A stretch of 64,000 bases of DNA from an uncultured delta proteobacterium (GCA_963804955.1 CAWDSQ010000024.1:1-64000), one strand, 5' to 3'. Positions 33,489 to 57,662 are shown, counted from the stretch's first letter. Notes: generated from the sequence alone by a model not told the origin. Translations and numbers: made by a program.

Positions 33489-33501
33489 GCTTCCTCCTTT
33501 T

Positions 33502-34197: not shown

Positions 34198-34256
34198 ACA
34201 TCCTCCATAGTATCAGGTAATTGGATTTCAACTTTTCACATGGCTTACGACGGTTC

Positions 34257-35232
34257 TTACATCATCGCCAGCATCTCATCCAGATCCATGCCGAGCTTCT
34301 CCATCTGCTCGCGGATGGACTTCATGGAAACCTCTGCATAGCCGTTTTCTTTAGCATACTGCTCGGAATTGCCTACGATCATTTCAAGCATTTCAACCGG
34401 CACTTTTTTTATCATTGCCTGCGCTTCAGCGTCCCAGGGCATTGAAAAGACAGGCTCTTCACCGGCTTCATCCTGTACGGCCGGTTCCTCCGAAAATACC
34501 GATTTATCCTTTTTCTGCCAGAACGGCGAATGCGGCGGCTTGGTCATCTCGCGGCTGGCCTTCACATCGACTTTGACATTGCAAAGAATATTGGGAATCA
34601 TGTGGGCGAATTCCATGGGAATAATAATAAACAGCTGGTCCTGCTTAATCCGGTTATGCATGCGCCCGCCGAAATCGCCTCCCACGACCATGACGTTCTT
34701 GATATACCACGGCACGGCAAAAAGCTCCCCGCACAACGATGTGCCGAATGTGCCGTAGGGCTGCACCCCATCCTGGCACAGGCGGCAGCCGCCAAGTATG
34801 CAGGCATTGTGCGGATTGGTGACGACGACGATCCAGTCGACCTGCACGCCTTCAGGCACGTCGTCAAGAGGTGCTGCGCCTATGGCCTTGACCATGCCCG
34901 GCGGCAGGCAATAGGTGCCTGCCTTCAGCCTGGCAGCACCCTCATCGGTAAAAAAGGCGCTTGTTTTGGACAGATAATCACCGGCTACAATTTCCTTCTT
35001 ACCGGGAACAATGCCGGCATGATGCACGCCGACATAACAGTCATGATGATCGGCGTCGAAATACACCCTTTTTGCCTTCATCCATCGCATAACGCATAAT
35101 GGCGCAGGGAGTATCCTGAAGCGGCTCATATCCTGCCGGAACCTGATCCCGGAACAGGCTGATTGCAACGGGTTTGCCCCGGACTTTTGCTTTTGTGACT
35201 ATCATGTCGCTTAGTGCTTTAAGATCAACCAT
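34257..35232 (-). CDS. DUF169 family protein with C-terminal PCP_red-like domain (frameshift near 35080)
   Basis: PVAISL, PCA, DC.VG, PLD, SLCG, GD.GGR; C-terminal WDAEAQAMIKKVP...EQYAKENG. Confidence 0.7.
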
Positions 35233-35593
35233 ACGAGCTCCTTTCGATAACGTTTAATACAGCAGAATCATAATCTTTAGCATATAAATTATTATACTTA
35301 TCTCACATTAAACTGTCGAGCAAAACAGTAATTAAAATAAAAATATTCTAAATTTTTATTTTTCAAAATATATTTAAAATAATGCGGTTTAATAAAAAAA
35401 TGGCTACGAACTATCGCAACCATAGAGCTTATTCACATGGGGGAAAAAGGTCATTTATAGATGGCTTCTTTGCATGCTTGATTGTATCTGGTATGAAAGT
35501 ATTCTCAAGACTCATTCAAAGAGAGCACCTCCTGTAGGGCTTTATTGTCTGATACGGAAATTCATTTTCAGAGATGGAGCCGATGGTGAAAAA

Positions 35594-35767
35594 CTACTTA
35601 TTTTTCAAAGCGATAAACAAAGCGACAACAGCTACAAATGAAAGAATTAGAGGATTTTGCGCGACATTGAGTTCAGCTATTTGTTCCGGATCCAGACATG
35701 ATTTTGCCTGTATCCCCAGATACACTACTATTACTAAATTAATTAACGCCCCTATTGTTGTCAGCAT
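35594..35767 (-). CDS. Small (57 aa) two-helix membrane protein
   Basis: AAGGAG RBS; MLTTIGALINLVIVVYLG...LILSFVAVVALFIALKNK. Confidence 0.45.
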   Translation of the reverse strand: MLTTIGALINLVIVVYLGIQAKSCLDPEQIAELNVAQNPLILSFVAVVALFIALKNK

Positions 35768-35967
35768 ATAATTCTCCTTTTTAATAGACAGCCGGCAAAG
35801 TCAGGTTGTATCCGCTGCGGCTCACGAAACAAAACCGCATAAAAACATTCATTAAAACCACAGGTGGCTGTATAAAAAGATTTGTAGTAAAAACAAAAAT
35901 GGCAGCCCGTATTTAAAAGCAATCGTGCTGTTACTGTGCAGCATATTTTTTCAAAACTGCTTATAGA

Positions 35968-36480
35968 CTAATAAATAATGCAGATGATGACACCAAGAAT
36001 GCCGCTGACAATCGCTTCGAGAAAGCCGAGAATATCCAGCGTCAGGATGGAATCAAACACATCGGCAAGCATCGTAAGCACGCTATTGAACAGACACTCA
36101 AGCGTTCCCAATATACCGGTGGCAATAATACGTTCATCGCCATCTATAAGGGACATCTTTCCGTCGCCGGTCAAGGTAACGGTTGCCTGCATGCCGTCGA
36201 TTTCAAGAAGAAACGGCTTTCCGGGCTTTAACCCTGATGAAGGGAAACCGATAGTAACCGCTGAGCCCTTAAGATCAGGGATATAAACACTGCAGATATA
36301 CCCGGTTTGGGAATCAGCAACAATCCTTTCACTAAATACGCCTGCCGCCTTTAATGCGCTCTGGAAAAGGGCCGGTTGTACAACCGGCTCAAATGACCCC
36401 GCCTGAGTCGGAACAGGTCTGCACAGCAGCAGAACACATGCAGAAAAAGCAATACAAAAAATTTTCCCGGTCAATTTCAT
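35968..36480 (-). CDS. Secreted hypothetical protein with hydrophobic C-terminus
   Basis: GGAGGT RBS, signal peptide; last gene of the cytochrome operon. Confidence 0.6.
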   Translation of the reverse strand: MKLTGKIFCIAFSACVLLLCRPVPTQAGSFEPVVQPALFQSALKAAGVFSERIVADSQTGYICSVYIPDLKGSAVTIGFPSSGLKPGKPFLLEIDGMQATVTLTGDGKMSLIDGDERIIATGILGTLECLFNSVLTMLADVFDSILTLDILGFLEAIVSGILGVIICIIY

Positions 36481-36499
36481 ACCTCCGCGCTTGCTGAAA

Positions 36500-37090
36500 T
36501 TATTTAAATTTCTTCGGGTTAATTTCATACGTATGTAAGCCCTGCGGTTTTACAACGACAATGCTGAAGGGCTTCTGCAAAGCAAGCTTATCATATCTGA
36601 AATAAACTCTAATGGTTGCATAATAGGAGGAGAAGCCCTGGCCGGCGCTTTGAGAATGTGGCGATGCCTGAAAGTGATCCGCATGAATCATTTCCGGAAG
36701 AATCTTTTTGCCCTCCTGCATGGCATGTACCGTATAGCTGCGGGCAAATTCAATACTGGATCCGTATACGGTAATGTCGATCTGAAGCGCGGGATCCTGA
36801 AGTATGGCTTCCGGCTCCTCCATGGAAACTTCCCTGCCCTGCTGCGCCTTGATGCCGGCAAGCAGTGCAAGCTTGCACCACTTGGTACGCACAACTACCT
36901 CCGGAGCGGACGGGCCGCAGCCATAGAGGCTCATAACCGTTTTTTCTATATCACGCTGGCTTGCCCTTCCGAATTCAAGTGCTTCCTGTACCTGGCTGCG
37001 GGTAAGATTGTCTGTTATGGCATGCACAACGCTGCACGGACATACACACACGGCGCACACCATGATAATAAAAAAACTGGCTGCCTTCAT
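36500..37090 (-). CDS. Periplasmic hypothetical protein
   Basis: Signal peptide ending VHA; GGGAGG RBS; co-oriented, 17 nt after the porin gene. Confidence 0.65.
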   Translation of the reverse strand: MKAASFFIIMVCAVCVCPCSVVHAITDNLTRSQVQEALEFGRASQRDIEKTVMSLYGCGPSAPEVVVRTKWCKLALLAGIKAQQGREVSMEEPEAILQDPALQIDITVYGSSIEFARSYTVHAMQEGKKILPEMIHADHFQASPHSQSAGQGFSSYYATIRVYFRYDKLALQKPFSIVVVKPQGLHTYEINPKKFK

Positions 37091-37107
37091 TGTTCCTCCC
37101 CTTTCAT

Positions 37108-38940
37108 TTAAAATGACCAGCTTGCACCTACGCTGAGCATGTTGAAGTGGCCGTCAAAATAATTTTGATCATAATCATTATATTCCCGGTACATAAATCT
37201 TGAATGCAGCGTTAAATGTTTATTATAGGCATACACAATGCCGACTGAAGTTTGAACCTGTCCGATGGAAAGATCTGAAAAGTTGCCTATATTGCGCCCA
37301 TTAACATGTTTGTCAAAGTCGGCAGCGCTGCTGATGTAGGCGGCATCCCCGGTAAGATTTATTTGAGCCGTCAGTCGATATGCCGCCGAGAGGCTCCATG
37401 TCTGGCTGCGGCTGTCATAGGGAATATCATCATATTCGAAAAGGCCTTCAGCGCCATTCAGGTGATAGGTCTTGAGTGTCCCGAAGCTGTTTACGTTATT
37501 CTTCGCAATGGTATAGCCCCCGGTCAAAGTCAGGCGCTCGGTGGGCACATACCAGAGGTTGAGGCCATATTCCCACTGACCCTCATCGGAATCATAACGG
37601 CTGTTTTTCAGTTTGGCATAGCGCAGGTTCGTATTGAGCGTTAAATTATACAGCATGCTCCAGGTCATGCTCGCAGTATAGGTGTCCTCTTTTTTTGGCA
37701 GCGAAGTCTGCACAAGGCCCGGTATTGTTTGATCTTTCATAACAAGCGGTTCATGAACGCGTATCTTCTCATATTTCAGGTTATACCGAAGCTTTTTAAA
37801 CAACCGCTGATTCCAGGTGATCCGCCATGTATTTTTACGTGTTGTGTTCGGGTCGGAATTGTCTCTATCGATATCCTGCCACTGATAGGAGCAGGTAAGC
37901 CCCGAATTCCTGATTGGGTGCATATTAAGATCGAACCCGCCCCGCTTTGTATCCAGATCAATGCCTTCATGGCTTTTGTTTTCAAGGCTGTATTTGTTGT
38001 AGTACACATCGCAGGCCAGATATTTTGAAAAATATTTACTCAGGCGCGTTGCGATGCTGTTAAAGGTGGCGTTGGTATGGGTTTCAAGATTTTCACGCTT
38101 ACCATGCTGAACGGTGGCATAAACAGTTGAGTCCCATGGCAGGGCAGACCGGACATTAACCGTGTCAACATTCAGCCTGCTGTCAGGCACGAGGCTGTAG
38201 GGCGCCCGGCCCCTGACCTGAAAAAACGATGCGCCATTGCCGTATTCTGCCATGGGCGCAGCACCGTGTTCGGTAAAGGAGCGCATCAAATGATTATACG
38301 ATATGGTTGCGGGCCCCAGCGACATTTCCATGCCGGGGGCTATATCGTTAATGCTTGAATTGACGCGCTTGTTGCGCGAGGTGACGTGGCACTCGGAGCA
38401 TTTGCCGACTGTTGTGGCCTGCCGGTGCCCGAGCTTTTGATAGGATCGCATATCAAAGTTGAATTTTACAAAAGGCAGCGACGGGAGCAGAAGCGTATTG
38501 TTTGCCTTTAACTCCGATATAATCAGCTTATTGGACTCGCCGGTATCATAATCCCTTGTAAAGTCCTGATTCTTAAGCTGATCATGCTCCAGGTAGTGCT
38601 GAAAACGAATATAGCTGAAATCACTGCGCAGATAGCGGTTAAGGTCAAGGTTGAGATTATACGACTGGTCATTGTCATCAAGCATTCGCCCGGTCATATC
38701 GATATAATTTCTGCCATTGCTGGCTTGCAGGTCAAACAACGATTCGGCGCCTGACTGAAGCACATCATATTCGCCGACTTTACTGCGATTGCCGTCAGTA
38801 TTATAGAAATGATAGCCCCCGGATACGGCAGCGCTTACATTCACATTCTGCAAAGTGCTCTTTGCTTCCTGGGCGGAGGAGCCGCCGGGGCAACACATGA
38901 GTACACCGATGATCAGAATGGCTGAAATGAGGCGATTCAT
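37108..38940 (-). CDS. MtrB/PioB-like outer-membrane beta-barrel with one CXXCH (GSU2204-like)
   Basis: Signal peptide, alternating beta-strand pattern, C-terminal ASWSF, internal GKCSECHV; ATGA overlap with the decaheme gene. Confidence 0.85.
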   Translation of the reverse strand: MNRLISAILIIGVLMCCPGGSSAQEAKSTLQNVNVSAAVSGGYHFYNTDGNRSKVGEYDVLQSGAESLFDLQASNGRNYIDMTGRMLDDNDQSYNLNLDLNRYLRSDFSYIRFQHYLEHDQLKNQDFTRDYDTGESNKLIISELKANNTLLLPSLPFVKFNFDMRSYQKLGHRQATTVGKCSECHVTSRNKRVNSSINDIAPGMEMSLGPATISYNHLMRSFTEHGAAPMAEYGNGASFFQVRGRAPYSLVPDSRLNVDTVNVRSALPWDSTVYATVQHGKRENLETHTNATFNSIATRLSKYFSKYLACDVYYNKYSLENKSHEGIDLDTKRGGFDLNMHPIRNSGLTCSYQWQDIDRDNSDPNTTRKNTWRITWNQRLFKKLRYNLKYEKIRVHEPLVMKDQTIPGLVQTSLPKKEDTYTASMTWSMLYNLTLNTNLRYAKLKNSRYDSDEGQWEYGLNLWYVPTERLTLTGGYTIAKNNVNSFGTLKTYHLNGAEGLFEYDDIPYDSRSQTWSLSAAYRLTAQINLTGDAAYISSAADFDKHVNGRNIGNFSDLSIGQVQTSVGIVYAYNKHLTLHSRFMYREYNDYDQNYFDGHFNMLSVGASWSF

Positions 38941-39851
38941 CTCGTGAGACCTCCTCCATTGACCTGAGACGGAAGATCGCTTCCGTGCACTGCCGAATGG
39001 CACTGCACGCATGAAGTCAAAAACGCGCCCGGCGTAGGATAATCGCCGGCTTTGGGGTTTATCTGATGGCCGCGGTGACAGCGCAGGCAGAGAAACGGCT
39101 CGCTTTGACGCAGCAGATTGTTGGCGATTGTTCCGTGCGGCTCATGGCAGAGAGAGCAGTCTTCAACAACCGGCGCATGCTCAAAAACAAAAGGCCCCTG
39201 GTATTCTGCATGGCAGTCAAAGCAGACATCATTGAGACTCTGTTTCTTTAAATTGTTGTTTTCAGATCCGTGGTTGTTATGACAGCTGCCGCACTTCATC
39301 TTGTTTTCGCGCAGCGGATGATGCGATGGCAGCATGAGCTGTGCTTTCTTTTCCTGATGGCAGGTGAAACAGATGTCCGGATCACCGAGATAGACCATCT
39401 TGGGACCTGTAATCTTATGGGATTTATGGCATTCATTGCATCCCACGCCGTTGATCATATGAACATTTGCGCGCCAGTCCATCGTCGGGGACCCCTGATG
39501 GCAGGCCAGACACATCTGAGAGCTCTGTTCGGCAGGCATTTTGGCGAAGCTTATAATATCCTGAGCCTTGCCTTTGGTCTGAAGATGCCTGCTGCCCGGG
39601 CCGTGACAGGTTTCGCATCCCCGCTGCATGCCTTTGAGTTCAGCGGCATTCAAACGGTAATGCATGGTCTTTTTAAACTGCTGATACACGTCGTCATGAC
39701 ACGGGACACACGAGTCTGTACCGACATAAAATGCGCCTTCGATCAGCGGCAGTTCCTGCCTGTTTTCACCGGCTTTAAGAAAACGCTGGCAGCTGAAAGC
39801 GAGGAAAGCGCACAGTATGCTTATGAATAATGCGGCTGCGGATCGGTTCAT
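38937..39851 (-). CDS. MtrA/DmsE-family decaheme cytochrome c, probable lipoprotein
   Basis: 10 CXXCH; GCETCHGPGS.H, PSHHP, GPFVFEHAPVVEDC, CH..VHGSD.PS; AFSC lipobox-like. Confidence 0.93.
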   Translation of the reverse strand: MNRSAAALFISILCAFLAFSCQRFLKAGENRQELPLIEGAFYVGTDSCVPCHDDVYQQFKKTMHYRLNAAELKGMQRGCETCHGPGSRHLQTKGKAQDIISFAKMPAEQSSQMCLACHQGSPTMDWRANVHMINGVGCNECHKSHKITGPKMVYLGDPDICFTCHQEKKAQLMLPSHHPLRENKMKCGSCHNNHGSENNNLKKQSLNDVCFDCHAEYQGPFVFEHAPVVEDCSLCHEPHGTIANNLLRQSEPFLCLRCHRGHQINPKAGDYPTPGAFLTSCVQCHSAVHGSDLPSQVNGGGLTR

Positions 39852-39895
39852 AGACGGCTCTTAGTGTCCTTCACTGGGAATATGCATATAAAAAC

Positions 39896-41401
39896 CTATT
39901 TGTACGATTCGACAGGCTCTTTCAGCTGATATCTCTGCGGCCCGGCATGGGGGTCATGACAGGCCGAACACTTCTTCTCGGTAAAAATATTGTGTTTGTT
40001 GAAATCAGGCGCGGCAGCCTTTAAAAGGGCTTTTTGCGCCATGATATGACAGTCGGCGCACAGGCCGGTGGCAACGGAGCTGATACGCGCCTTGTGCCTG
40101 GCGCTGTGGCAAAAGTTGCACTCATTGCCCGGCTCAATGTCGATGCTGCGCTGATATTCCACAAAGGCTTTGTGCAGTGAGAGGGGTTCAGCCAGCTCGA
40201 CAGGTTCAGCGCCTTTCTCTCGCAGCAAAGGATGGCAGGTATGACAGATTCGCTCCTCATTGGATCTGAGCAGCTTCGTGTATTCTGAAGCATGGCTCTC
40301 GTGACAGAAATAGCAGTTTTTCAGCACTGACCGGTCATGAACAACGGCATTGTTGACCAGCTTGGTTTCATGGCAGCCCTGCCTGAAACACAAGCCAAGC
40401 GCCGCGGGCTTTTCCCGCTGCTCTGCAGTGACGTTATGGCAGGCTTTGCATTTATTTTCAGCCCAGGGCTTGTGAGGGCGCAGAACATCAGGTGAGGTCC
40501 TCAGTATATTGCGCACCGGGGGAAGCTTCGCGACAGTAAGGCAGTCCTTAAACTCCCTGTGGCAGGCAATGCACAAGTCTGCGCCGCCGCGCAGGCGGAG
40601 AAGCGACGGCTCGCCGGCGCCCGTGGCGTCAATACCTTTTTTAATGACCCCCTTCGCATGGGGGTTATGGCAGGTAACGCAGTGAATGCCGGTATCGCCA
40701 AGAGGAAGAACAGCTGCAGCATGGCTGTCGCTTTGCAGCGCCTGTTTCATTCCGGCCGGCAGCTCTACAAGGTGGTCCGCCCGGGCTGGATGACGGCTTT
40801 TTTGCTGCTCGTGACATCCTATGCAGAGCCGGTCGCTGTCCTGTTTCAGAGGCGCATCCTTTATTTCGGATGCCGTTTCTATATCCGGCATCACCTGATG
40901 GCATTGCAGGCAGGCTTCCTCCTTGAGAACACCCAGCTGCGAAATCATCAGCTTATGCGGGTTCGGCTGTTCGAAGCGGGACCGCTCATGGCACGTGAAG
41001 CACATCGATTCGCCGGCAGGCTTATGCAGCCGCAGAAATTTGCTGTTAAAAACTCTCCCCAGCACAGTATCATACATTTGCGACTGAATATCATGACAGG
41101 TAAGGCAGGTCAGCCTTCCGCCGCTCAGGGGCCAGCCTGCAGGTATCCGTTCTTTCATCTGTTCTGGCGCAGCAATATTTACCTGATGCACCTCAAAGCG
41201 GGCTTCGGAGCCTGGTCCATGACACCGGTTGCACAGGGCATTGATGTCGCCGCCTGAACGAAGGGCGGGAGGAGCGTTGTTTTCATGGCACTCCCCGCAG
41301 TGCATGCCGGTCCAGTGCGGGTTTACCATGGTTTCGGCCTGAACCGTATAAGCAGGCATCATAACAACCAAAGAAATCAGTAAAAGAAGCACCGGTCTCA
41401 T
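39896..41401 (-). CDS. Periplasmic multiheme cytochrome c (14 CXXCH plus 1 CX4CH)
   Basis: Manual motif count; signal peptide. Confidence 0.9.
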   Translation of the reverse strand: MRPVLLLLISLVVMMPAYTVQAETMVNPHWTGMHCGECHENNAPPALRSGGDINALCNRCHGPGSEARFEVHQVNIAAPEQMKERIPAGWPLSGGRLTCLTCHDIQSQMYDTVLGRVFNSKFLRLHKPAGESMCFTCHERSRFEQPNPHKLMISQLGVLKEEACLQCHQVMPDIETASEIKDAPLKQDSDRLCIGCHEQQKSRHPARADHLVELPAGMKQALQSDSHAAAVLPLGDTGIHCVTCHNPHAKGVIKKGIDATGAGEPSLLRLRGGADLCIACHREFKDCLTVAKLPPVRNILRTSPDVLRPHKPWAENKCKACHNVTAEQREKPAALGLCFRQGCHETKLVNNAVVHDRSVLKNCYFCHESHASEYTKLLRSNEERICHTCHPLLREKGAEPVELAEPLSLHKAFVEYQRSIDIEPGNECNFCHSARHKARISSVATGLCADCHIMAQKALLKAAAPDFNKHNIFTEKKCSACHDPHAGPQRYQLKEPVESYK

Positions 41402-43419
41402 TGGAGATCTCCGAAGGGAAACTGTTCTTTTTTCTCGATGCGTGCAGGCCGGTTATGAAAATACAGATGTTTAAACAGCGCTTCAGCGCCGTGACAGATG
41501 GAGCAGAACTGCCGGGGCAGGTCATACCTGAGAAAGCTTGTCGTTATCGTACCCTCGGCAAGACCGGTGCCCCTGCCCTTTTTCTTTCCGTCCCACTGGT
41601 GCGCATTGTGACAGGTCGAGCAGACAATGCCGCCCATAGGGGAGGTTCCTCCTGAGGGGGTAAAAAGGCATATATCGAGCTGGAGCCGTTTATTGGCGAT
41701 TTCAGATACACGGGAATAAAAGGCGCCGGGGTGCAGGCCGTAACGGGGCACATGTTTTCCGGCAATGCCGCCTTTCTCATGGCAGCCGGTACAGAGTGAT
41801 ACCATAATATTTTTAGCGGGCTTTTCTGATTTCAGCCACTCTTTGGGCACGGCAGTGCCCAGGGGCGCTGCCCACATGTATTCCTTTATTGTTGAGCCAT
41901 GGGAGACATGGCATGCACCGCAGACGGATGACTGGGCCGGAGCCTGGCCGAGGGCGTTTTTGTAGCCCGTGCGCCGCAATGCTCATGTCATGGGGTGTTC
42001 CTCTGACAAAACCCTGCTCAGGATGGCAGCTGATGCACAGTGCCACCTGTCCGCCATCCCCAAGCCTGAGATACCGGCCGTTTTTGCCTGCCTTGGAAAC
42101 ATCCGTAACAGGCGAAGGATCATGAACGTCATGGCAGGTCATGCACGCAACCTTGCCCTGGGCGGATTGTTCGCATGCGTCATTAAAAAGGGGCAGGCCT
42201 GCAGAGTTGACTGAAGAGGCCTTTGCCGCCGGATGCGCAGAGTTGCGGGGAACCGCCTTTTCAGCGCACTGTCCCGGCGCATGGCAGCTCTTGCAGTAGC
42301 TTTCAAAACATGTTGAAGAGGAGGGCAACTGGCGGGCCCACATAAACGGGCCGTTGCCCTTATGCACAGAGTGACAGGCGCCGCAGGGGCCGCTGCTGGC
42401 GCCGGTCGTATTCAGTGGGTTTTTTTGCGGATGTTCGGACAGGCGCAGATCATGCGTGCTTTTCAGAGTCTGGCTCTGCTTTTTATGACAGCGCACGCAG
42501 AGCCCGTCATCCCCGGCCTGCTCGTTGAGCAGAAATTCACTGTCTGCTGCATTATGAGTTCTATGGCACGTGAAGCAAATCAGGTCGCCCTGAACGCTCA
42601 GCACTATTTTCTCGCCGCTGCTCCAGGTTTCCGGTATCTGCACTGCGCTGTCGGGCCGTATGTCGACAGGGTGAGACATACCTGTTGGTGTCGGGGTCAT
42701 TGGGCTTTTTTGGCTTTTTCGTGTGGCAGACTTCACAGAGTATCGCCGGTGCGGCGGAGTCGCGCAGCCAGCAGCACCAGCCGCTTATCGCCGACGCCGC
42801 CATGCGCCATATGGCAGGTTTCGCAGATAATTTGATTTGACTTTTCAGTGCCGAACCGGCCGCCGGCTTTTATAATCGCTTCCGGCGCCTGCTCAACTGA
42901 CACATTCACAGGATGGTTGCCCTGAGCTGTTCCGCCCGTATTTTTTGTATGACAGCGGATGCAGAGTGAGGAGTTTATATTGGGCTCGCGTTTGAATGTC
43001 ATATTAATCGAATCGCGCGGCGAGAGTTCAGCATGCGGGGTGTGGCAGGTAGAGCACAGGAGCGCCCCTTTTTCATCCAAAGGGAAATTTGGCGGTATTG
43101 TCACGCGGTCTGAAGGTATGACTCCACTTTTATGGCTGGGAGTGTTGCATACCGTGTTGCGCGAATCCCGCACGGAGCCATCATGGCAGGAAAGGCACAT
43201 TTTGGTCTCGCCAACGCTGTCCTTGGATTCCTCGAACTGTGCGATAGGAGTGCTCTTGTGCTCTATAAAAAAAGTATAGACCCATCGATAATGGCAGATC
43301 GCGCATTTTTTAGCCGTATCAGACTCGCGCGGCACGCTGCCCTGCTGCGCGGGTGAGGGGCAGGGTAAAAACAGAAAGATGCTCAGCAGCATCAGCAGGT
43401 AATGTAAGGTTTTCAGCAT
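41398..43419 (-). CDS. Periplasmic multiheme cytochrome c, about 16 hemes (frameshifted)
   Basis: ORFs 42733-43419 (5 motifs), junction CEVCH (1), 41813-42736 (6), 41398-41979 (4). Confidence 0.85.
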
Positions 43420-43421
43420 GG

Positions 43422-44234
43422 CTATTGTTGCTTAAAAAGATCGGGAAAATAAAAAACTTCATAATTGGTCAGCATGCCGCCAATTTCCATACGTTGAAGC
43501 TGGTTGGTCCGCGTCTGATCAAATCCCAGCTGCACAAAAGGCATAATACCTGTGGTGCTGTGACACTGCTTGCACATAACGAACTCCTTTATCTCAGCGT
43601 CCTTGTGCATGCTGTCGACGATCTGTTTCTTTTTTTCATCGGAGTATGTTTCTTTTTCAGCCATATACTTCAGCGACAGTGCGATGTCCTGCTCCGACAT
43701 GTAGGGCTGCAGCCCTCCCTCCACCATGTGGAGCGGCGTAATTTTTGATACATGATTGCCGGTAGAGGCTAAAAATCCTGTTGTGGCGTCCACACAGGTG
43801 CCGTACGGCTTTTCCGTTGGGTTCATGCCGGGGGGATTCACCCAGCCGAATCGCATATTGGATTTTTCGGACAACTTCAGATGGCAGGTGTTGCACGTCA
43901 TGAATTCGGTATGCAGATTGATGATAGCCATTGCCTGCTTGTTGCGTCCGTGGGGGTAAACGGTGTGGCAGATAATGCAGGATGATTTTTCCGCCCATGC
44001 ATCAAGCGCCTTATCCTCAACTCCAAGATGAAAATGTTCATGCTGCTGTTTGCGCTCCAGCTCCTTCATTTGCCAGGCTGCAAGAGACATGGATTTTGGC
44101 TTCTCGACCTTCATCTCTTTTTGCCGCTCAAACTGTACGCTGAACGTAAGCCACCAGCTCAGAAGAGCTGCCATCGTGATCACGATGGCAAAAACGATGA
44201 ACGCCTCTATGCGTGAATTTCCATTATTTGGCAT
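43422..44234 (-). CDS. Membrane-anchored triheme cytochrome c
   Basis: N-terminal TM helix; CIICH, CNTCH, CKQCH. Confidence 0.88.
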   Translation of the reverse strand: MPNNGNSRIEAFIVFAIVITMAALLSWWLTFSVQFERQKEMKVEKPKSMSLAAWQMKELERKQQHEHFHLGVEDKALDAWAEKSSCIICHTVYPHGRNKQAMAIINLHTEFMTCNTCHLKLSEKSNMRFGWVNPPGMNPTEKPYGTCVDATTGFLASTGNHVSKITPLHMVEGGLQPYMSEQDIALSLKYMAEKETYSDEKKKQIVDSMHKDAEIKEFVMCKQCHSTTGIMPFVQLGFDQTRTNQLQRMEIGGMLTNYEVFYFPDLFKQQ

Positions 44235-46088
44235 CGCTGCTCTCCCCTTTCAGGAGTTTCTCTTCCTCGCATTCCGCAACGCCCTCCTGAACCTGGCGCT
44301 GGTATTCAAGAAAATGCTCCTCAATCTGGTGGTCCTTTGCGATGCGGCCTGTCCAGAATGTCCACTGAAGCGGGAAGCGGCCGGGAGCGATATGCACATT
44401 ATACATATGCCAAAGGGCTATTACGAGAAACGCCAGTATCGACTCCTCGCCATGCATAAGCCGCAGCACATTAAACGATACTTTAGCAAAAGGAATATAT
44501 TTAACCATAAATTCCGGAAACAGCAGGCAGCAGCCCGACAGTGTCAGCACCGAGCATCCCCATACCTGGCCAGATAATGCAGTTTTTGTTTGTACATGAA
44601 TTTTTCCATCCTCGGCCGGGAATTTTCAAAACCGAGGAAATAGCGGAAATCGAAGTAAAAATCCTTCAGATCTTTCCACAGCGGAAATTGAGTTCGCTTG
44701 ATATCAAACGTGCCGTGCCTCATCTGCCTGGCAATGCCGAGCATAAGCACCGCAACATGATAGACGCAATTCAGAGTGAAAACAGCAGCATTGACCCGGT
44801 GTATTAAACGGGTGACGGTGATACCGCCGAGAAGATTGATAAACTGATGCGAAAGCTCGGAATTATGAAAAAACAGCGGGAGCCCCGTAATGACTGCTAT
44901 GGAAAAGGTGATACCCATGAGAGTATGATTTATAATGATATGCACCGAGTACCGGGGCAAGTCTCCTTTGGCGTCATACTGTACATAGCGATGCAGATTG
45001 GGGATTGTACCGATCGGGTCAGCCGGAACAGCCGGGGCCTTTGGTAATTTCTGGGGCTTGCGCAGCCATCTGAAAAAACGCGCATCGTGATTTTTGATCC
45101 GGCGGTAGGTTTCCATGCCCATAAGCGTAAAAAGCAGAAACAGCGTAAAAAACATGACGCCCTGCATAATGACTTCGGCCAGATGAATTTCCGGCCCCTT
45201 TTCCTTGTGTTTGCTCAGGTGGCTGTCGACAGAGGCGATCATCTTGCCCGCGCCGGGATGACAGGCCTCGGTCTGACATGTCTGGTAACGGTTTTCAGGA
45301 TGTACCGACGATTGCGGGTCGGATCCGGGTCGAATATTGTGTATGCTTTCGCTTGCATGACAGCTGATGCAATGGGCCGTATCCATGCCGCCGAACTGAA
45401 GAATCCGGTAATGTATTGTTTCCTTGTAGGTGCTGACGGCCTCAGCTACGGGCCCCTCCATGCCGACGACGTTCTGAAAATCTTTGTCGGCATGGCAGCT
45501 CGCGCAGAGAGCAACAACCGCAAGCGGCGGGCGGCTGGTCTTCTGCCGCATGCGGTGCGACATGTGGACAAATATCTGTTCGATGCCTTTTTCCTTGTGA
45601 CAGTTAAGGCAGCGCTTTATTACTTTTTCAGGCGGTATGTCCTGAGGCAGCGCATAGAGGTCATTGAGGTGGCAGTATTTGCAGTCCGGCTTTAATGCGG
45701 CTATTTCCGGCTTATCGTCCGGCTGTATGCCATGGATGCTTTTATTAAAGGCATCGGCTACATCCTTATGGGAAAAATCGGTTCCGCTCATGGCTTTCCA
45801 TCTGTCAATATGACAGACTTTTGCGCAGTCGACTTTTTCAATTTTTCCATGAGGGACTTTCTCTATATCGCTATGGCAGTCGATACAGGAAAGGTTGCCG
45901 TGTATCGAGTCCTGATACAGATGGCCTTCGACATAATAATTTCTCAGCGTGCCGTCTGCAGTATAGCCGCGCAGGCGCTGATACTTGTGGCATAACAGGC
46001 AATTCTCAGGATCACCGGCCACGGAAACGCCTGAAGACAGGCACAGCAGTATAGCCGCGAACGCGCTGAATCCTTTAAAAATTTTCAT
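44224..46088 (-). CDS. CbcL-like multiheme c (8 motifs) fused to a di-heme cytochrome b domain (frameshift near 44550)
   Basis: 6 CXXCH plus CX3CH and CX4CH; FdnI-like helices with His ligands (INHT, IHR, MHGEE, WH.YNVH). Confidence 0.88.
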
Positions 46089-46107
46089 AATGCCGACTCA
46101 TGCTGGT

Positions 46108-47064
46108 TCAGGGTTTATTTATTTTTTTGCCGCTCATTTCATACACGCTGACCTGATTGGCGATCATATCAACCACATACAGCCGCCCGCGATCATCAGC
46201 AGCAATGCCCACAGGGGTCTGCCATTTTAAAACATCGCCTTTTTCATCTCCGATGACCCCCTTTAAATTACCATAGCGGTTAAATACCTGGATCACCCCC
46301 AGGTAGCTGTCACTGACAAATATCTGGTTGTCCGGGTCGACGCATACTCCTTTGGGCCGGTAAAACTGGCCCAGGTCAACGCCCCAGCCGCCGATCGTAC
46401 CCACGATATCTCCTGTCGGGCTGTAGACCTGAACGCGCGTATTAATGACATCGACGACAAACACGGATGAATCAATTCCCACGGCAAGGAAAAAAGGATA
46501 CTGCAGCTGGTCGCGCCTCTCCCCTTCAGAAGCCCAGGAAGCGATCTGCTTGTATCCCGGCAGGCCGTACACAAGCACGTGATGATTGTCATTGTCAACA
46601 ACATACATCTGCTGCTTAGACTCATCAATAGCTACATCGGTCGGATCAGCGGGCTTGTCGCCTTTTGCGGGAATAATATCAACGCTTTGGAGCCACTCTC
46701 CGCCTGGCGTAAAAAACTGCACCCGGTGATTCTGCGAGTCAGCCACGTAGATGCGTCCTTCCTTGTCGGCGGCAATGCCCAGCGGGCTGGTAAATTCACC
46801 CTGCTGCGCTCCTTTGCTGCCAAAGGCAAACTGGTAGCGGCCCTGCGGGTCGAAAACCTTGACGCAGTTGTTGACCCCGTCCAGCACATAGATCTGATGG
46901 TCTTTGCCTATGGCGATGTCGCTTGGCTGCAGAAAGTCCCTTGTTATGTCAAAGAGATGCTTTGCAGGATATACCGTATAAGCATGCAATGCTCCGGGCT
47001 GCGCTGCAAGCAGCCCCGCTGCAGACAACATCACGGCTAATAACCTTGATGCACCGGTTCTCAC
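46108..47064 (-). CDS. NHL-repeat beta-propeller protein
   Basis: Repeated F..P.GIA.D..G.IYVADS.NHRVQ.F; signal peptide. Confidence 0.92.
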   Translation of the reverse strand: MRTGASRLLAVMLSAAGLLAAQPGALHAYTVYPAKHLFDITRDFLQPSDIAIGKDHQIYVLDGVNNCVKVFDPQGRYQFAFGSKGAQQGEFTSPLGIAADKEGRIYVADSQNHRVQFFTPGGEWLQSVDIIPAKGDKPADPTDVAIDESKQQMYVVDNDNHHVLVYGLPGYKQIASWASEGERRDQLQYPFFLAVGIDSSVFVVDVINTRVQVYSPTGDIVGTIGGWGVDLGQFYRPKGVCVDPDNQIFVSDSYLGVIQVFNRYGNLKGVIGDEKGDVLKWQTPVGIAADDRGRLYVVDMIANQVSVYEMSGKKINKP

Positions 47065-49826
47065 TGGCTTTTCCTCTCGAAGATTGTCGGAAACTGAAAT
47101 TGGCTGAAATTTTCAATCATCTGCACGAGCTCGCTGCGGGTTAGTTGCCTGATCCGCTCAGGCGAGTAGCCGAGCTGTTTGTACGGCAATAGCGGCTGCT
47201 TCTCGTTATGGCACTGCTGACAGGTAATGCTTTTCTTGCTTAAGAACGAGTGTATCTTTTCTAGTGACTCTTTCTTCTGCTCCAGCGACAGGGTGCTTGA
47301 CTCGGCCTTCTTGATGAAGCTCTCTGCATAATCCTTGATGGGGTCGCTATCCTGCCGTTTAAACCCCTCGGGGGTTTCAATCCCTGGAACGAGCTTAATA
47401 TTGAGTTCATCAAGCGGGGCTCCCGACAGATCAGGCACGGCATCAAGGATCTTTCCGGTGGCCCTGTTGTACCACCTGTACGTGTACTGTATACCGGTAT
47501 CCTGCTTAATATGGCATGTCTGGCAGGCAAGATAGAAATCGTGCATATTGAGATAGGTGCGCACCTCGGCTTTCGTACCATGAGGAAAGTCGCCGTGGCA
47601 CTTGATGCAGTACGACCTGTCGTCGGGAGTGACCTGCATGGTTATATTGTGAAAGTGGCCGGTTATTTCCTGCTCTTTGAGCACCCTGAATCCGCGATAA
47701 AACTTCTTCTTGCCCGCATCTTCAAGGAGCACCTCTTCAAGAAATCGCGGCTTATCGAGATAGTGCTTTTCCGGTATGCGGGTCGCGGTGAGCATATGGA
47801 ATCCGAACACAGTGTTGAACACAAGCCAGGTCAAGTATCCGGTAGTCCCTATCAAAAGCACCAGGGTGACAATTTGGCCCACGAAGCGGACGGTGCTGCG
47901 CACCATACCTCTTTTCTCTTCGGCATGTTCGGGGGCAAGGCCTTCGCTCTTGAGAGCCCCCAGGTAGTAGCCGTGGTGCTCTCCTGATATTTCCTCCTCT
48001 TTTTTTGTGCCCGTCAACCAGGACATGCCCATGGGCAGATGTTCGAGCTTCAGATGCGTGTTATAAATATGCCAGAGCATGATGACGATGGTGGCAAGCA
48101 GCGCTTCATCGCTATGGGCTATCAGGCAGAAGTTCAGTATGTTGCCGGGAAGGAATTGCGTAAAAAAGTCCTGCCCCCAGAGGACGACTCCTGACAGGCC
48201 GATGACGGGAACGCCCCAAAAAACGGCCAGGTATCCGAACTTCTCTTTGAAATTGAACCGCGAGGCTGACGGCCGTTCATTGGTTATATACAGCCGGAAC
48301 AGCATGCTTTTCCAGATATTTCGCAGGTCCTCAAGGTTGGGAACCATGGGCAGTACGAGTATGCTCATGAGCATGTTACGCAGCGTCAGCCTGCCGGCTT
48401 TCTGGAGCGGCTTGAGGTAGTATTCAACGTAGCAGCAGGCTATGTACAGGAAGTGGAACAGAAACACGAAACCCATGACCACGGCGCATACCCTGTGTAT
48501 CACCGTAGCGAGTTCTATGCCGCCCAGCATTTCATACAGCGTGCGCATCCACTCGACATGCATATATTTCATGGGTATGCCGGTTAAAACAAGCCCTGCG
48601 AAAGAGACCATGAGCAGTACGTGCTGCTGGCGCTGGTTGAAAGTCAGGTGCTTGAAATATCTCACGCCATTTTTTACATAGACCGGCGGCCGATCATCAC
48701 CGAGCTCTACGCCGTCTACGATGGGCCGCGGGGGCAGCATCCGATCTTCGAACCGGTGCTTGATCGGGAGTATTTCTCTGATAAGATCCAGAATAGCTGC
48801 AATCATGATGGGTATGAAACTCGTCAGCGTCAGCAGGACAAAAAACAGGGAGACGTAAAACTCTATCGGGTGGCGCTCCCTGTCCGCCAGCAGATGGACT
48901 TTATATTCGGTCAGATTCTGATTTGCGTCGGGATGGCAGTCTATATTGGAGCAGGCCTGCAAACGGTTTGCCGGGTACACGGCCGAGCGCGGGTCGTTCT
49001 TGTCATGCATGGAATGTATCGAGCCCCCGGAGCTGGCATGACAGTCAAGGCAGTCCGGCGACGTGTCATCCCCCATAAAGACTGATTTGCCGTGATAGGT
49101 CTCCCAGTAGGCATAGACAACATTCGGCTGATTGTGACGCTTAAGAAAATCCGCGTCCTCATGACATTTCGAACACAGCTTCACGACATCGGCGCCGCTT
49201 CTGAGCTTTTGCATGCGCGAGGTGAAATGGCTGTAAAATTTCTTTATGAATGTCTTGTCGTCATGGCAGGTTAGGCACCGGCTCATGATTCGATCGGAAA
49301 CGCCGGGCCTGATTTTTTTAAAAAACGACAGCGGCCTGTACAGCGGATCCTGATGGCAGGTCTTGCATGTTGGATAATCCTCTGGATGGGGCTTGGGACT
49401 TCCCTTTTCATCTATCGGGCTGTGCACGCTGGTCTGAAGTATATCGCCGACCTGCTTATGGGTAAAATTTTCAAGTTTGCCCTGCTTGTCAAGGTGGCAT
49501 TCCTTCAGGCAGTCGACCTTTTCAGCTTTTTTATGAGGAATATCCTTAATGTCGGCGTGGCAGCTGCGGCAGTTGAGCAGACCATGGGGGCTGTTCTGGT
49601 ATATGGGCTCTGAGATATACAGCAGGCGGAGCATATTATTTTCATCAATATGGCTCATGCCGCGGTGCTTGTGGCAGATAAGGCAGTTGTCCACATCAAC
49701 GGCCCGTGCGGTGGCCGCCGGAAGCAACACGGCAAGCAGCAGCACGCAGCCTGCTGCACGGCAGATGAAACTATACGGAACTTTCAAACTGCGGTCTTTG
49801 TTCATCATGGGATCGCACTGCCTCAT
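47061..49826 (-). CDS. Multiheme c (8) - cytochrome b - triheme c fusion protein
   Basis: 6 CXXCH plus CX3CH and CX4CH; QRQQH, IHR, AHSDEA, WHIYNTH; extra TM helix; then CIKCH, CQTCH, CQQCH. Confidence 0.9.
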   Translation of the reverse strand: MRQCDPMMNKDRSLKVPYSFICRAAGCVLLLAVLLPAATARAVDVDNCLICHKHRGMSHIDENNMLRLLYISEPIYQNSPHGLLNCRSCHADIKDIPHKKAEKVDCLKECHLDKQGKLENFTHKQVGDILQTSVHSPIDEKGSPKPHPEDYPTCKTCHQDPLYRPLSFFKKIRPGVSDRIMSRCLTCHDDKTFIKKFYSHFTSRMQKLRSGADVVKLCSKCHEDADFLKRHNQPNVVYAYWETYHGKSVFMGDDTSPDCLDCHASSGGSIHSMHDKNDPRSAVYPANRLQACSNIDCHPDANQNLTEYKVHLLADRERHPIEFYVSLFFVLLTLTSFIPIMIAAILDLIREILPIKHRFEDRMLPPRPIVDGVELGDDRPPVYVKNGVRYFKHLTFNQRQQHVLLMVSFAGLVLTGIPMKYMHVEWMRTLYEMLGGIELATVIHRVCAVVMGFVFLFHFLYIACCYVEYYLKPLQKAGRLTLRNMLMSILVLPMVPNLEDLRNIWKSMLFRLYITNERPSASRFNFKEKFGYLAVFWGVPVIGLSGVVLWGQDFFTQFLPGNILNFCLIAHSDEALLATIVIMLWHIYNTHLKLEHLPMGMSWLTGTKKEEEISGEHHGYYLGALKSEGLAPEHAEEKRGMVRSTVRFVGQIVTLVLLIGTTGYLTWLVFNTVFGFHMLTATRIPEKHYLDKPRFLEEVLLEDAGKKKFYRGFRVLKEQEITGHFHNITMQVTPDDRSYCIKCHGDFPHGTKAEVRTYLNMHDFYLACQTCHIKQDTGIQYTYRWYNRATGKILDAVPDLSGAPLDELNIKLVPGIETPEGFKRQDSDPIKDYAESFIKKAESSTLSLEQKKESLEKIHSFLSKKSITCQQCHNEKQPLLPYKQLGYSPERIRQLTRSELVQMIENFSQFQFPTIFERKSQ

Positions 49827-49834
49827 TAGTATTT

Positions 49835-50588
49835 TTATCTGGCCTCACGGACGCATCGAAACCCGATATTAAAGCTCCGGGCATCCGGAGACGCATAAAA
49901 ACGGTTTGCAGCCCTGACTTCATCCGGGCCGCAGTACCATGCACCGCCGCGCAGCACCTTCAGCACTCCGTCTACAGGACCGGTAACATGGTTATCGGGG
50001 CTTACTGAATAAAAGTCTGCGCCATACCAGTCAGAGCACCATTCCCATACATTGCCGGTCATATCATGCAGACCGTACGGATTGGGTGGAAACTTTTTCA
50101 CCTGCACAATTCCGAAAGAGCCATAATTTGCAAAATTTTTGTCCGATATGTCTCCCCAAAAATATTTCTGTCCTGACGTGCCGCCGCGTGCGGCATACTC
50201 CCACTCAGCTTCGGTAGGCAGACGCTTGCCTGCCCATGCGGCATAGGCCTGCGCATCATACCACGATACACCCGCAACAGGCTCATCGGGCTTATCGATC
50301 TCCGGCTGCCAGAACGGCGGCAGCGTACGTGAGGTTGCTTCGGCAAACACTTTATACTGAGCATTGGTAATCTCATGAACATCCATATAAAAAGAATGAA
50401 CAGTGACTTCATGCCGCGGTTTTTCATCAAAATCGCCATCGTCTGAACCCATGACAAACTTTCCGCCTTGAATAAAAATAACGGCCTCAGAAATAGTTCC
50501 TGAAACAGGGCCATCCGGCGCCGGTGACGGGCCGGCTGCACAGCTAAAGCATGCACAAAGTTAAAAACAGAACAATCAATCTTTTCAT
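49835..50588 (-). CDS. FGE-sulfatase (SUMF1/NirV-like) domain protein (frameshifted 5' end)
   Basis: RLPTEAEWEYAARGG, GLHDMTGNVWEW, RGGAW, GFRC. Confidence 0.88.
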
Positions 50589-50622
50589 GCATAGTTCCGG
50601 ATACGGCATACCCTGCCCTGTT

Positions 50623-51717
50623 TTAATGAACCAGCGTTGACGTTTTCTGGACTGATATAAAATCATAGAATCGAGCCTGAAAGCCGTTGTGGCAGCTCAG
50701 GCATGCGAAATTAAGCGTAAGAAACGGGCCTGCTGACATCCTTGACAGCATAACTGCCGTCAAGTGAAAACATTTGATAGGGCTCTGCCTCCGTTTTTAT
50801 ACGCCAGATATGAGAAGCGGTATCGCCTTTTCTATACGGACCGATACCTGTCGAATTATCTGTTTTTACGGCCGGCGCCATATGGCAGCTTGTACACAGC
50901 AACACGACTTCATGCCCAGGTAGCGCTTTTTTAAAAAGTGACATGTGCTGCAGGTGACTTTTATGGCATTCATCGGTGCGAGTTTCAAGACTGTAATGCG
51001 GGTTATGGCAGCCCGGCGCATTGCAGGATTTTGCCATGCCGGGTGGATAGCCCACTCATTGTACTGCTGCTGCGGCTTTATAAAACCGTCCTGGGCTTCA
51101 ATGACCCTCCCGTCATTGCGGGAATGGCAGGGCTTGCAGACAGAGGCGGTTGTATCCACTATGATTGTTGCGGGTGATGGTGCGCTAATATGGCTGCCGC
51201 CAGGACCGTGGCATGATTCGCAGCCTGTATACGGGTAATGCAATGTCTGCTGCCAGGCGGCATAAATAGTACTGTGGCAGCCATTACAGACATCAGAGCC
51301 GACATATGCAGCTGCAAAAGGCTCAACCGTAAAATATGCCGTTCGCACAACCCGCTCGTTAAAAAGCGGAATATATTCCACAACATCCACCTTCGCTTCT
51401 CCACGTGCCGTAAATGGTATACTGATGTTCCATACCACAGAGTACAAGCCGCTCAGCCGCAAGCGAACGCGGTAGCCGAGTCGTATTGTCCAGTTCGAGC
51501 CGGTAACTTCGCCGTGCAGCAGGACAAGGCTGGGCCTTTCAAGGCTGTAAGCCACCTTGACTCGCACTGCCTGACTGGGCTGGCATTGTGTTATCTCAGT
51601 ACCTTCAGAATCCGTTACGGTGATTTGTTCAATAGCAAAAGGCATAGTACCATAGGCTGTGCCTGCGGCAAAAAGGGACAAAGCTAAAAAAAATACTGCC
51701 GGTCTATATCGTGTCAT
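50623..51717 (-). CDS. Secreted multiheme cytochrome c (about 7 hemes) with a beta-rich N-terminal domain (frameshifted)
   Basis: CNGCH, CESCH, CKPCH, disrupted C..GCH, CSTCH, CTSCH and CLSCH across frames. Confidence 0.8.
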
Positions 51718-51740
51718 AGTTGTCTGTCCTGCACAGTCAG

Positions 51741-53256
51741 TTACTGTGTGTGCACGGATGGTGCGATATTTTTTACCTGGTCGTAGGTATAACTCGTGGC
51801 GGCCTGACCGCCGGTTCGATGGCAACCCAGACAAACAAAATTAACGGTGAGCCCGGCGGTTTTGCCCGCTGAATCAACAGCAAGCTTCGACCCGTTGTCG
51901 GAAAACATCTCCGAAGGTGACGCTGCAGCGGAATTTATTTTAAAAATATGTGAACGCAGATCGCCGAAAATATGCTCATTCTGGGCAGGGTCGATAAATA
52001 TTTTTGATGCCCCTGCTTTCACCGCATAGGGCATGTGGCAGTCGGTGCAGGCAAGCTGTGACATATTGAGCCCAACTGTCACACCGGTATGGCAGGTTGT
52101 GCATTCTGTCACAATAGCAGTCCCGTGCGGCCTGGTCATCATAATGGGCCGAGGCATGAGGGTCGTGGCATCGTGTGCACTGCATAAAGCTGTGTGGCGA
52201 AGCCTTGAGCTCCGATGCCTGCTGCTGATGCAGGATGAGGCCGCCGGATGCTTCAACCACCGACGAACTGCCCCGCACGTGACAGTCGGCACAGGGTATG
52301 GCCGATGAAAGGTCGGGTTTTACAGCATACGGAGCTGCAGCATGGGCGCTGCCGGGGCCGTGGCAGGCTTCGCAGCCGACGCGGCCCTCCGTCCAGGTGC
52401 CGGCGATACCGGAGAGGCCGCCCTGGCTGCCCTTCGGCACATAGCCGGTGGCATGACAGGGGCCGCAGTCAAAACGTGCCGGGATCCGGAGTATCAGGGC
52501 TGTAGGATACAAATCCTGCAGGGGTCCCAAGATAGCTGCTTGCCAGGTTGTATTGAGCTTCCGGGCCGGTAAGTATCGTGCCGTTGTCAGCCGACGAGAA
52601 ATTGGCAGACCAGGCATACCCGCCGATAACATAGGAAATATCTCCCCAGATGGTTCCGGGAGGCGGATTAGGAACGCCGGAAGCAAAAGGCGGGTACGCG
52701 GGCGCCTGATATGCAATAGAGCTCATGGCATAGTAGTGCCCTGATTGCGTATAGACATTGACAACATCAGGGGTGAAGCCGACATGACAGCCCATGCACC
52801 GCTGAGACCCGATATAATCCTGCGCGGGTCCGGGATTAGGCTGATTTTAAATGAGGTTGTTTCGCGGGAGATACCTCCGGGAATGCCCAGATAGGTTATA
52901 GCCACGGTGGCATTGTCGCTTGCGCCGAGAGGCACGATGCTGTCCCAGTAGAAGCTGTAATCACCATGCTCGCAGCTGTTTTTAATTGAAGGCGAAGCGT
53001 TCTGCTTTTTTGCGCCTGTGAATGTTACAGATCCCCAGGCGAAAGAGATTGAAAACAGGCGGACAGAGTAGTCAATGTTGTAGCGAACGGGATTGCCCGG
53101 CGCAGTATCTGGTATAGGCGTTATGGAAACAGTCACGGCCGAAGGGGCTGCGGAAGACGGCAAAGCAGTAGTGCTGCCGGCCAGGGCCTGGGAGGCAGCA
53201 AGAAAAAACAAACAGCACAGCATTAGTGAGATACAAGTATAGACTTTGCTTCTCAT
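51741..53256 (-). CDS. Secreted octaheme cytochrome c with a beta-rich N-terminal domain (frameshifted)
   Basis: CMGCH, CGPCH, CEACH, CADCH, CTRCH, CTTCH, CTDCH and CLGCH across ORFs 52723-53256, 52469-52795, 51976-52716 and 51741-52292. Confidence 0.82.
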
Positions 53257-57575: not shown

Positions 57576-57662
57576 ATATTTCCTCCTGTTTGATTTAATT
57601 ATCTTAACGTAAATATGCAGTGGCGTACATTTTCTGTACGCCACTGCTTACCAGGCGAGGCC

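Follow-up and report, generated by a model that had tools for sequence, protein, structure and literature searches.

The 64,000-nucleotide stretch GCA_963804955.1 CAWDSQ010000024.1:1-64000 from an uncultured delta proteobacterium (hereafter the window) carries on its minus strand, at positions 35968-53256, 13 co-oriented genes standing head to tail, labelled A–M (Table 1). Judged by homology, predicted topology and gene order, this cluster is probably a functional operon, its frames broken by assembly error alone, which encodes a trans-envelope multihaem conduit, most likely in outward respiratory use. The gene order given in the original prediction, namely two secreted cytochromes, an FGE-like protein, a first b/c module, an NHL propeller, a second b/c module, a 16-haem and a 15-haem protein, a decahaem, a porin and two unknowns, was confirmed, and the second b/c module of this layout comprises two genes (F and G).

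Table 1. Genes A–M of the cluster and the haem-binding motif of the porin, in window coordinates.
Feature	Position	Strand	Basis or remark
Gene A, secreted 8-haem cytochrome, ~500 aa	51741..53256	-	Orthologue 507 aa, 8 CxxCH; 3 frame breaks
Gene B, secreted 7-haem cytochrome, 362 aa in orthologues	50623..51717	-	Six 1-nt insertions
Gene C, FGE-sulfatase-fold lipoprotein, ~250 aa	49835..50587	-	PF03781; 1 frame break
Gene D, inner-membrane c-b-c module 1, 921 aa, intact	47061..49826	-	Motifs, hydrophobic segments
Gene E, secreted NHL-repeat beta-propeller, 318 aa, intact	46108..47064	-	PF01436
Gene F, c-haem and cytochrome b part of module 2, 621 aa in orthologues, 8 haem motifs	44224..46088	-	1 missing base
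Gene G, membrane-anchored trihaem subunit of module 2, 270 aa, intact	43422..44234	-	Homology to C-terminal part of D
Gene H, secreted 16-haem cytochrome, 672 aa in orthologues	41398..43419	-	Three 1-nt insertions
Gene I, secreted 15-haem cytochrome, 501 aa, intact	39896..41401	-	14 CxxCH + 1 Cx4CH
Gene J, OmcK (GSU2203)/DmsE/MtrA-family decahaem lipoprotein, 304 aa, intact	38937..39851	-	NF041028, TIGR03508
Gene K, MtrB-like 26-strand porin of OmcL (GSU2204) kind, 610 aa, intact	37108..38940	-	PF11854, AlphaFold2 model
Porin K haem-binding motif CSECH (Cys181, Cys184, His185)	38386..38400	-	Tip of strand 7/8 hairpin
Gene L, secreted 196-aa protein, no family	36500..37090	-	Helical N-terminal part + beta-sandwich
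Gene M, small secreted protein, hydrophobic C-terminal tail	35968..36528	-	Start probably internal ATG 36480

When haem-binding motifs (CxxCH and Cx3-4CH) were counted in the intact orthologues on contigs CAIWCT010000321 and JAFGCP010000177, the series 8+7+11+8+3+16+15+10+1 was obtained, and the resulting 79 c-haem motifs equal the sum previously reached by manual count. In the window itself, 76 of the 79 motifs are readable in aligned frames, with the remaining 3 lying at indel sites in A and B; gene H retains 16/16 motifs despite its indels. The 4.26-Mb genome contains 31 stop-to-stop frames with at least four CxxCH, of which 9 lie inside this 17-kb stretch; the A–M genes are single-copy, and the cluster is the genome's largest cytochrome locus. 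The predicted 4-nt overlaps are real (GTGA at 47061-47064 between D and E, ATGA at 41398-41401 between H and I, and ATGA at 38937-38940 between J and K) and are also present in same-genus orthologues; F and G overlap by 11 nt, and elsewhere the intergenic spacing in orthologues is -11 to about +88 nt. With such tight spacing and with the conserved synteny described below, A–M appear to fit a single operon.

Genes J and K encode the putative outer-membrane pair. J passes the cut-offs of both NF041028 (345 bits, cut-off 325) and TIGR03508 (260.1, cut-off 192.2); all 10 of its CxxCH motifs are invariant in 12 orthologues, in which the lipobox Cys21 is nearly invariant as well, and its profile matches MtrA (PDB 6r2q_A) with an E value of 4.7e-58. 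By homology, its assignment as a decahaem of the MtrA/DmsE/OmcK family holds. The true start of K is ATG 38940 and not 39012, an orthologue having a stop in the upstream extension. K passes Pfam PF11854 (MtrB_PioB; 30.8, cut-off 23), and a sequence search of the PDB returned no match for it. Its AlphaFold2 model, built from 24 sequences, has a predicted local distance difference test score (pLDDT) of 81.9 and 26 strands; the best Foldseek match is MtrB (6r2q_B; E 2.9e-19, template-modelling (TM) scores 0.74/0.70), and the next has a TM score of 0.41. By this model, the reading of K as an MtrB-like 26-strand barrel holds.

The porin also has a haem-binding motif of its own. Exactly one CxxCH is found in each of the 36 distinct K-like open reading frames (ORFs) listed (36/36), and Cys181, Cys184 and His185 are invariant in 24/24 aligned porins. 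In the model, this motif stands at the low-confidence tip of the hairpin between strands 7 (155-179) and 8 (185-208). The even-to-odd strand junctions are 2-5 residues long, whereas the odd-to-even ones are mostly long loops, so that by the usual outer-membrane-barrel rule the strand 7/8 hairpin would lie on the cell-surface side. A complex prediction for porin K with protein L gave a score of 0.00 and a mark of 0.32 and carries no weight either way. Selenocysteine in K was considered and rejected: the in-frame TGA codons of relatives fall, in genome G001, within a spurious upstream extension, and K of the window bears no sign of selenocysteine.

The inner-membrane part is formed by D and by F with G. 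D consists, in order, of a signal peptide, 8 c-haem motifs, a transmembrane helix, a four-helix dihaem cytochrome b, a further transmembrane helix and a C-terminal trihaem domain (hence c-b-c); because the hydrophobic segments are even in number, both c-haem domains are placed, by prediction, in the periplasm. D thus joins a multihaem c domain to a dihaem cytochrome b with conserved His ligands, as His402, His444, His571 and His586 are invariant in 22/22 aligned b domains, including those of four MtoC-like proteins. F shows 30% identity to D over ~640 aa (E 2e-86), and G shows 28% identity to the C-terminal part of D (E 3e-24); by these alignments F+G is the same module divided over two genes, and D and F+G are paralogous. 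Four arrangements of the c, b and trihaem parts exist among relatives, with these parts encoded as one protein, as c followed by b+c, as c+b followed by c, or as three proteins, and this fusion and splitting is good genetic evidence that the three parts would form one complex. It was also found that D and F have 26-27% identity (E 1e-40 to 7e-54 over ~600 residues) to MtoC-like proteins, which are 9-haem proteins of 656-667 aa encoded after MtoA/MtoB-like genes in metagenome-assembled genomes (MAGs) of Gallionellaceae, Azonexaceae and Rhodocyclaceae and are called MtoC by gene order and taxon only. Against the PDB, D gave only a marginal multihaem sequence match (1sp3_A, E 0.0012).

H and I, the putative periplasmic carriers, have signal peptides and lack membrane segments. 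A and B share a common plan, in which a haem-free N-terminal domain (~140 aa in A) is followed by 7-8 haems, and in layout B is a likely paralogue of A; A has a weak sequence match to PDB 6i5b_A (E 1.2e-7), B also weakly matches 6i5b, and the N-terminal domain of B found no usable match in the protein-cluster atlas. In three rearranged clusters of relatives, B adjoins J-K-L.

The remaining genes are C, E, L and M, and the count for C and E in the orthologues is 0 haem motifs. C scores 204.5 bits with PF03781 (cut-off 23.3) and has the FGE-sulfatase fold; its best NCBIfam model, GldK/PorK, is far below cut-off, and its lipobox Cys is present in 14/15 orthologues. In active FGE, the catalytic Cys pair follows an RGG(S/A)(W/F) motif; among 15 orthologues of C, a Cys follows RGGAWY in only some, and none has one five residues further on. 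E matches NHL (PF01436) with 110.6 bits in 4 stretches and is kept in the cluster across the class. L has no Pfam or NCBIfam match; 16 orthologues were gathered, its model has a pLDDT of 85.2, and searches with Foldseek and VIA-align (48,161 chains) returned only generic Ig/FnIII/CopC-like beta-sandwich matches (best Z 7.2), while in the atlas its nearest clusters are hypothetical proteins. In this class, the L gene always stands after that of the porin. Probably, C, E and L have no catalytic role and serve in assembly or docking. M likewise has no Pfam or NCBIfam match and, apart from one weak match, is confined to the genus; in relatives (three loci, at about 13.3-14.5 kb) two tandem M paralogues follow L, and the window has one.

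The conservation of the cluster was examined by tblastn, among others in the best 80 loci of the decahaem search. The same-genus MAG contigs CAIWCT010000321 and JAFGCP010000177 keep the same order, with all 11-13 frames open (query D). The decahaem family is large, at least 589 of 599 matched stretches in species-representative genomes encoding a relative, and a K-like porin follows J in 58 of the best 80 loci, which come from Desulfobacterota, Aminicenantes, Planctomycetota and others. Among these 80 loci, L, H, I, C, E and close b/c modules occur only in the 13 whose J/K identities match the class of the window; a hidden Markov model of L found it in 12 of the 80, none of them outside the class-matching loci. 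Within genomes of the class, K was found in 24/41 and L in 22/42. In most loci with enough flanking sequence, B, C, the b/c genes, E, H and I are near J-K-L, either collinear or divergent. The full A–M layout is found within the genus, and the other layouts are B-C-D-E-H-I-J-K-L with one module, B-C-E-F-G-H-I-J-K-L, A-B-C-H-I-D'-E-D-J-K, a divergent form in which C-H-I-D'-E faces J-K-L, and, in one family, J-K-L alone. From this variation it follows that J-K-L is the core and the remaining genes are a frequently linked extension. The same-genus genome G003 has a full copy on contig C8 and, on another contig (G003:C42:1-17700), a second, partial one with a G-like gene and H to M, which are 83-94% identical to the reference. 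In MAGs of Aminicenantes, as at L044:2790-9841, an 8-haem protein resembling A, a decahaem resembling J and a one-CxxCH porin resembling K occur in series; after them comes a 931-aa protein in which a part with 19 CxxCH is joined to a cytochrome b domain, and an NHL gene is nearby; the linkage of an OmcL-type porin with b/c modules thus recurs in another phylum.

Several systems resemble parts of the cluster. It has been reported that CbcL/MtoC/MtrH genes cluster with mtrAB/mtoAB, MtoC and MtrH being CbcL homologues, and that mtoA-mtoB-mtoC(-mtoD) and mtrH/cymA-mtrABC clusters occur in Dechloromonas aromatica, Gallionella capsiferriformans and Rhodoferax ferrireducens (PMC6295460). These clusters, like the window, bring together an MtrA-like decahaem, an MtrB-like porin and a fused multihaem-c/cytochrome-b quinol oxidoreductase. 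However, the MtoB-like porins have no CxxCH (0/4 loci), whereas K of the window has one; the mto loci have a single b/c protein that ends after the last membrane helix and lacks the trihaem domain, whereas the window has two modules with it; and tblastn of the 13 proteins against the four mto loci gave only J-like and F-like matches and no counterparts of H, I, C, E or L.

The J-K pair is close to the OmcK-OmcL pair, as J passes the GSU2203-family cut-off and K shares the single CxxCH that gives the GSU2204 family its name. In Geobacter sulfurreducens, hematite and magnetite raise the expression of both GSU2203 (OmcK) and GSU2204 (PMC4070692, Table 2), and GSU2201 (PpcF) is regulated opposite to GSU2203-2204 (PMC4070692, Table 2; PMC9248073, Table 1). 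OmcK-OmcL homologues are highly expressed in HotSeep-1 (Ca. Desulfofervidus), the partner in a methane-oxidising consortium (PMC10553843, section 9); in that account, where the pair is named the OmcKL conduit, no periplasmic cytochrome gene adjoins it and OmcK is treated as extracellular (PMC10553843). In the window, by contrast, the genes ahead of the pair encode two inner-membrane modules and two large periplasmic cytochromes, and J looks like a porin-threading MtrA homologue. With regard to MtrCAB of Shewanella (PDB 6R2Q), J matches MtrA and the K model matches the 26-strand MtrB; unlike in MtrCAB, J has a lipoprotein signal, the porin has its own haem motif, and the quinol oxidase is of the b/c type, and no protein of the cluster reaches the cut-off of a CymA-type model, the only NapC/NirT-family match being NrfH at 31.3 against 134.2, on J.

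NHL-propeller genes, namely UetH/UetI of Tenderiales and DFE_0451/DFE_0463 of Desulfovibrio ferrophilus, have been described as fixed members of multihaem clusters, and the propellers have been proposed to stabilise complexes or aid adhesion (10.1101/2022.05.06.490989, PMC9769857, PMC10734462); going by the lists in those papers, the cytochromes and porins of these clusters are of other kinds than those of the window. MtrA-type/MtrB-type operons have been noted in Desulfuromonadia (PMC11492766). No description of the 13-gene layout, the c-b-c module or the porin haem position was found in the openly accessible main-text literature. The earlier statement that the layout is not that of a characterised system thus stands for the 13-gene layout, as far as openly accessible literature goes, but not for the idea behind it, since one-cluster conduits (PMC6295460) and OmcK-OmcL (PMC10553843) are published.

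The pathway proposed from homology, topology and linkage runs as follows. Menaquinol would be oxidised at the inner membrane by D or F+G, with electrons passing from the dihaem b to the periplasmic c-haem domains; H (16-haem) and I (15-haem) may then carry them over the periplasm; the decahaem lipoprotein J is predicted to thread porin K, as MtrA does in MtrB; and the electrons would leave at the cell surface, possibly via the porin's own covalent haem and A and B. The most likely use, on this reading, is respiration of extracellular acceptors such as Fe(III)/Mn(IV) minerals, humics or a syntrophic partner. The genome carries an MqnA-family gene (menaquinone synthesis), and its best dsrA match is 25.5 bits against a cut-off of 392.85; from these two results, outward respiratory or syntrophic flow is probably the simplest reading. 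A wider and tentative proposal is that OmcL-type porins are themselves cytochromes, with a c-haem on the extended strand 7/8 hairpin, at the surface mouth of the barrel, fed by the threaded J, so that J-K might be self-sufficient without MtrC; that the c-b-c modules might be an undescribed branch of quinol:cytochrome oxidoreductases; that the 2-3 paralogue types might choose the route by acceptor potential; and that H and I might serve as fixed periplasmic wires. We hold this whole set of ideas to be possible but doubtful.

A number of results weigh against the pathway or its outward reading. An MtrC/OmcA-type surface decahaem was not found among the 19 cluster ORFs, the best score with TIGR03507 being 29.3 bits against 209.3, so that the outer end of the path is a guess; the part identities of the original prediction (J of the MtrA family, K MtrB-like, D and F/G as fusions of a multihaem c domain with a dihaem cytochrome b) hold by homology, but its "complete quinone-to-outside multiheme conduit" lacks this surface cytochrome. 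The signal peptides of A and B are of the ordinary kind, and both proteins could be periplasmic. K reaches only 264.8 with NF041027 against a cut-off of 350, over profile positions 2-342 of 580; because this cut-off is missed, K is, by sequence, a relative of the GSU2204 (OmcL) family and not an equivalog. The b domain stays below cut-off with both PF01292 (27.3, cut-off 30.1) and TIGR01583 (39.8, cut-off 115.85). CbcL (GSU0274) of Geobacter sulfurreducens resembles the window modules in architecture, its HydC/FdnI-type dihaem cytochrome b being fused to a multihaem c domain on the periplasmic side; unlike CbcL, the window has two paralogous modules, to which a trihaem domain or subunit with a membrane anchor is added. 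With the genome 87% complete, the failure to detect dsrA in it is no proof of absence. As for the operon, a scan gave 31 promoter-like sites against 21.1 (standard deviation 5.1) in shuffles and 23 terminator-like sites against 21.4 (standard deviation 5.8); the weak promoter-like site at 53362-53333 and the weak terminator-like site at 35943-35926 were not used as support. Five of the 14 frame-breaking sites discussed below are not among the metagenome matches listed. Finally, the homologous MtoABC systems of iron oxidisers are read as carrying electrons inward (PMC6295460, PMC10734462), so that the sequence leaves the direction unfixed.

The 14 small indels of the cluster fall in five genes (three in A, six in B, one in C, one in F and three in H), and the other eight genes (D, E, G and I–M) are intact in the window. 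Gene A is broken at about 52841, 52477 and 52127; the break near 50556 severs the signal peptide of C; a single base is missing from F near 44567-44572; and H has 1-nt insertions at 42765, 42679 and 41972. Twelve of the 14 breaks are 1-nt differences from both same-genus relatives, and 11 of these 12 are insertions; an excess of 1-nt insertions fits long-read assembly errors. Elsewhere in the genome, rpoB is read in two frames, rpoC by contrast being in one, and the MqnA/MqnD-family (futalosine pathway) gene (G000:C25:82170-82950) is also in two frames; in the window, miaA (31303-31773 and 31637-32140, minus strand) and hflX (29921-30688 and 30729-31208, minus strand) are split by the same type of break as the cluster. 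The breaks of the same-genus genome G003, which has few contigs, fall in D, G, H and I and differ from those of the window. The corrected form was looked for in contigs of four metagenome runs, which are 94-99% alike in the listed pieces; this strain was found in none of the sequencing runs, the best share of sampled words being 0.22, and no RNA run was among the matches listed. These contigs are without the extra base of the window at 50556, 50898, 50908, 50983, 51014, 51050, 52127 and 52477 and carry an extra G at 44567, and the corrected form is thus seen at 9/14 sites; one contig over 42438-42798 shows two gaps. The broken stretches are free of amino-acid decay. Because housekeeping genes are equally split and metagenome contigs show the corrected form, the 14 breaks are almost certainly assembly errors. 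Decay of the operon in this strain through real mutations would account for the confinement of the breaks to five genes (nine of them in A and B) with eight genes untouched; however, rpoB, miaA, hflX and the MqnA-family gene are similarly broken, the breaks of G003 are different ones, contigs from independent runs show the corrected form, insertions prevail among the 1-nt breaks and amino-acid decay is absent, and we regard decay as highly improbable. This was the case that the original prediction had set against itself, and it was not borne out.

An intact conduit could also run inward and feed the quinone pool with electrons whose source would be Fe(II), a syntrophic partner or a cathode-like mineral. 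The homology of the b/c modules to MtoC-like proteins beside MtoA/MtoB-like genes would agree with this, CbcL/MtoC/MtrH have been argued to be bidirectional (PMC6295460), and OmcKL homologues have been proposed for electron uptake (PMC10553843). Against it, no terminal reductase for an inward flow was identified: the genome yielded no dsrA, and its aprA-like match falls well short of the cut-off (oxygen and nitrate reductases were not searched for). The record titles of relatives and the best-matching runs, moreover, point to anoxic freshwater and sediment, a setting in which transfer is usually read as outward. Inward flow is thus considered unlikely. A non-respiratory role, as a redox antenna, in detoxification or in electron delivery to a soluble or surface-bound substrate with the FGE-fold and NHL proteins as enzymes, is less probable still, and we give it little credence. 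In its favour, C, E and L are constant members of the set, and decahaem/porin pairs of the DmsE type, whose cut-off J passes, work for reductases of non-metal substrates. Against it, Pfam and NCBIfam scans of the cluster found no molybdopterin or other catalytic reductase, sensor or chemotaxis gene; two quinol-linked modules and 31 periplasmic haems would be much to spend on a sensor; and C lacks a conserved Cys after RGGAWY. A dimethyl sulfoxide-type use (DmsEFAB) was rejected, the genes for the molybdopterin subunit being absent from the cluster. Outward respiratory transfer therefore remains the preferred reading.

On the same strand, the upstream neighbours of the cluster are ruvC, ruvA and ruvB, which stand between A–M and two upstream multihaem cytochrome ORFs (56748-57644 and 58301-59908, minus strand) with 4 and 7 CxxCH and cytochrome c7/c3-type Pfam matches. 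Downstream, ~800 AT-rich bases (35168-35968) without a long ORF are followed at 33303-35168 (minus strand) by genes for two DUF169 proteins, one with a PCP_red-like tail, and a small 2x[4Fe-4S] ferredoxin.

It can be seen above that the cluster is real and conserved and, by comparison with its relatives, probably functional. It sets known types of part in a larger, much enlarged arrangement, and it extends rather than overturns current models. If the proposal is true, a small uncultured Desulfobacterota lineage has a dedicated route for extracellular electron transfer, and its members, whose habitats by record titles and coded run labels are anoxic lakes, springs and sediments, would be candidates for the reduction of iron or humics, or for electric syntrophy, in freshwater systems that produce methane. 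Unlike in HotSeep-1 as described in PMC10553843, an OmcKL-type pair is here set beside its likely periplasmic and inner-membrane partners; gene fusion and fission reveal which pieces of the inner-membrane module belong together; and the haem on the outer face of the porin, as predicted by the model, would be a testable feature.

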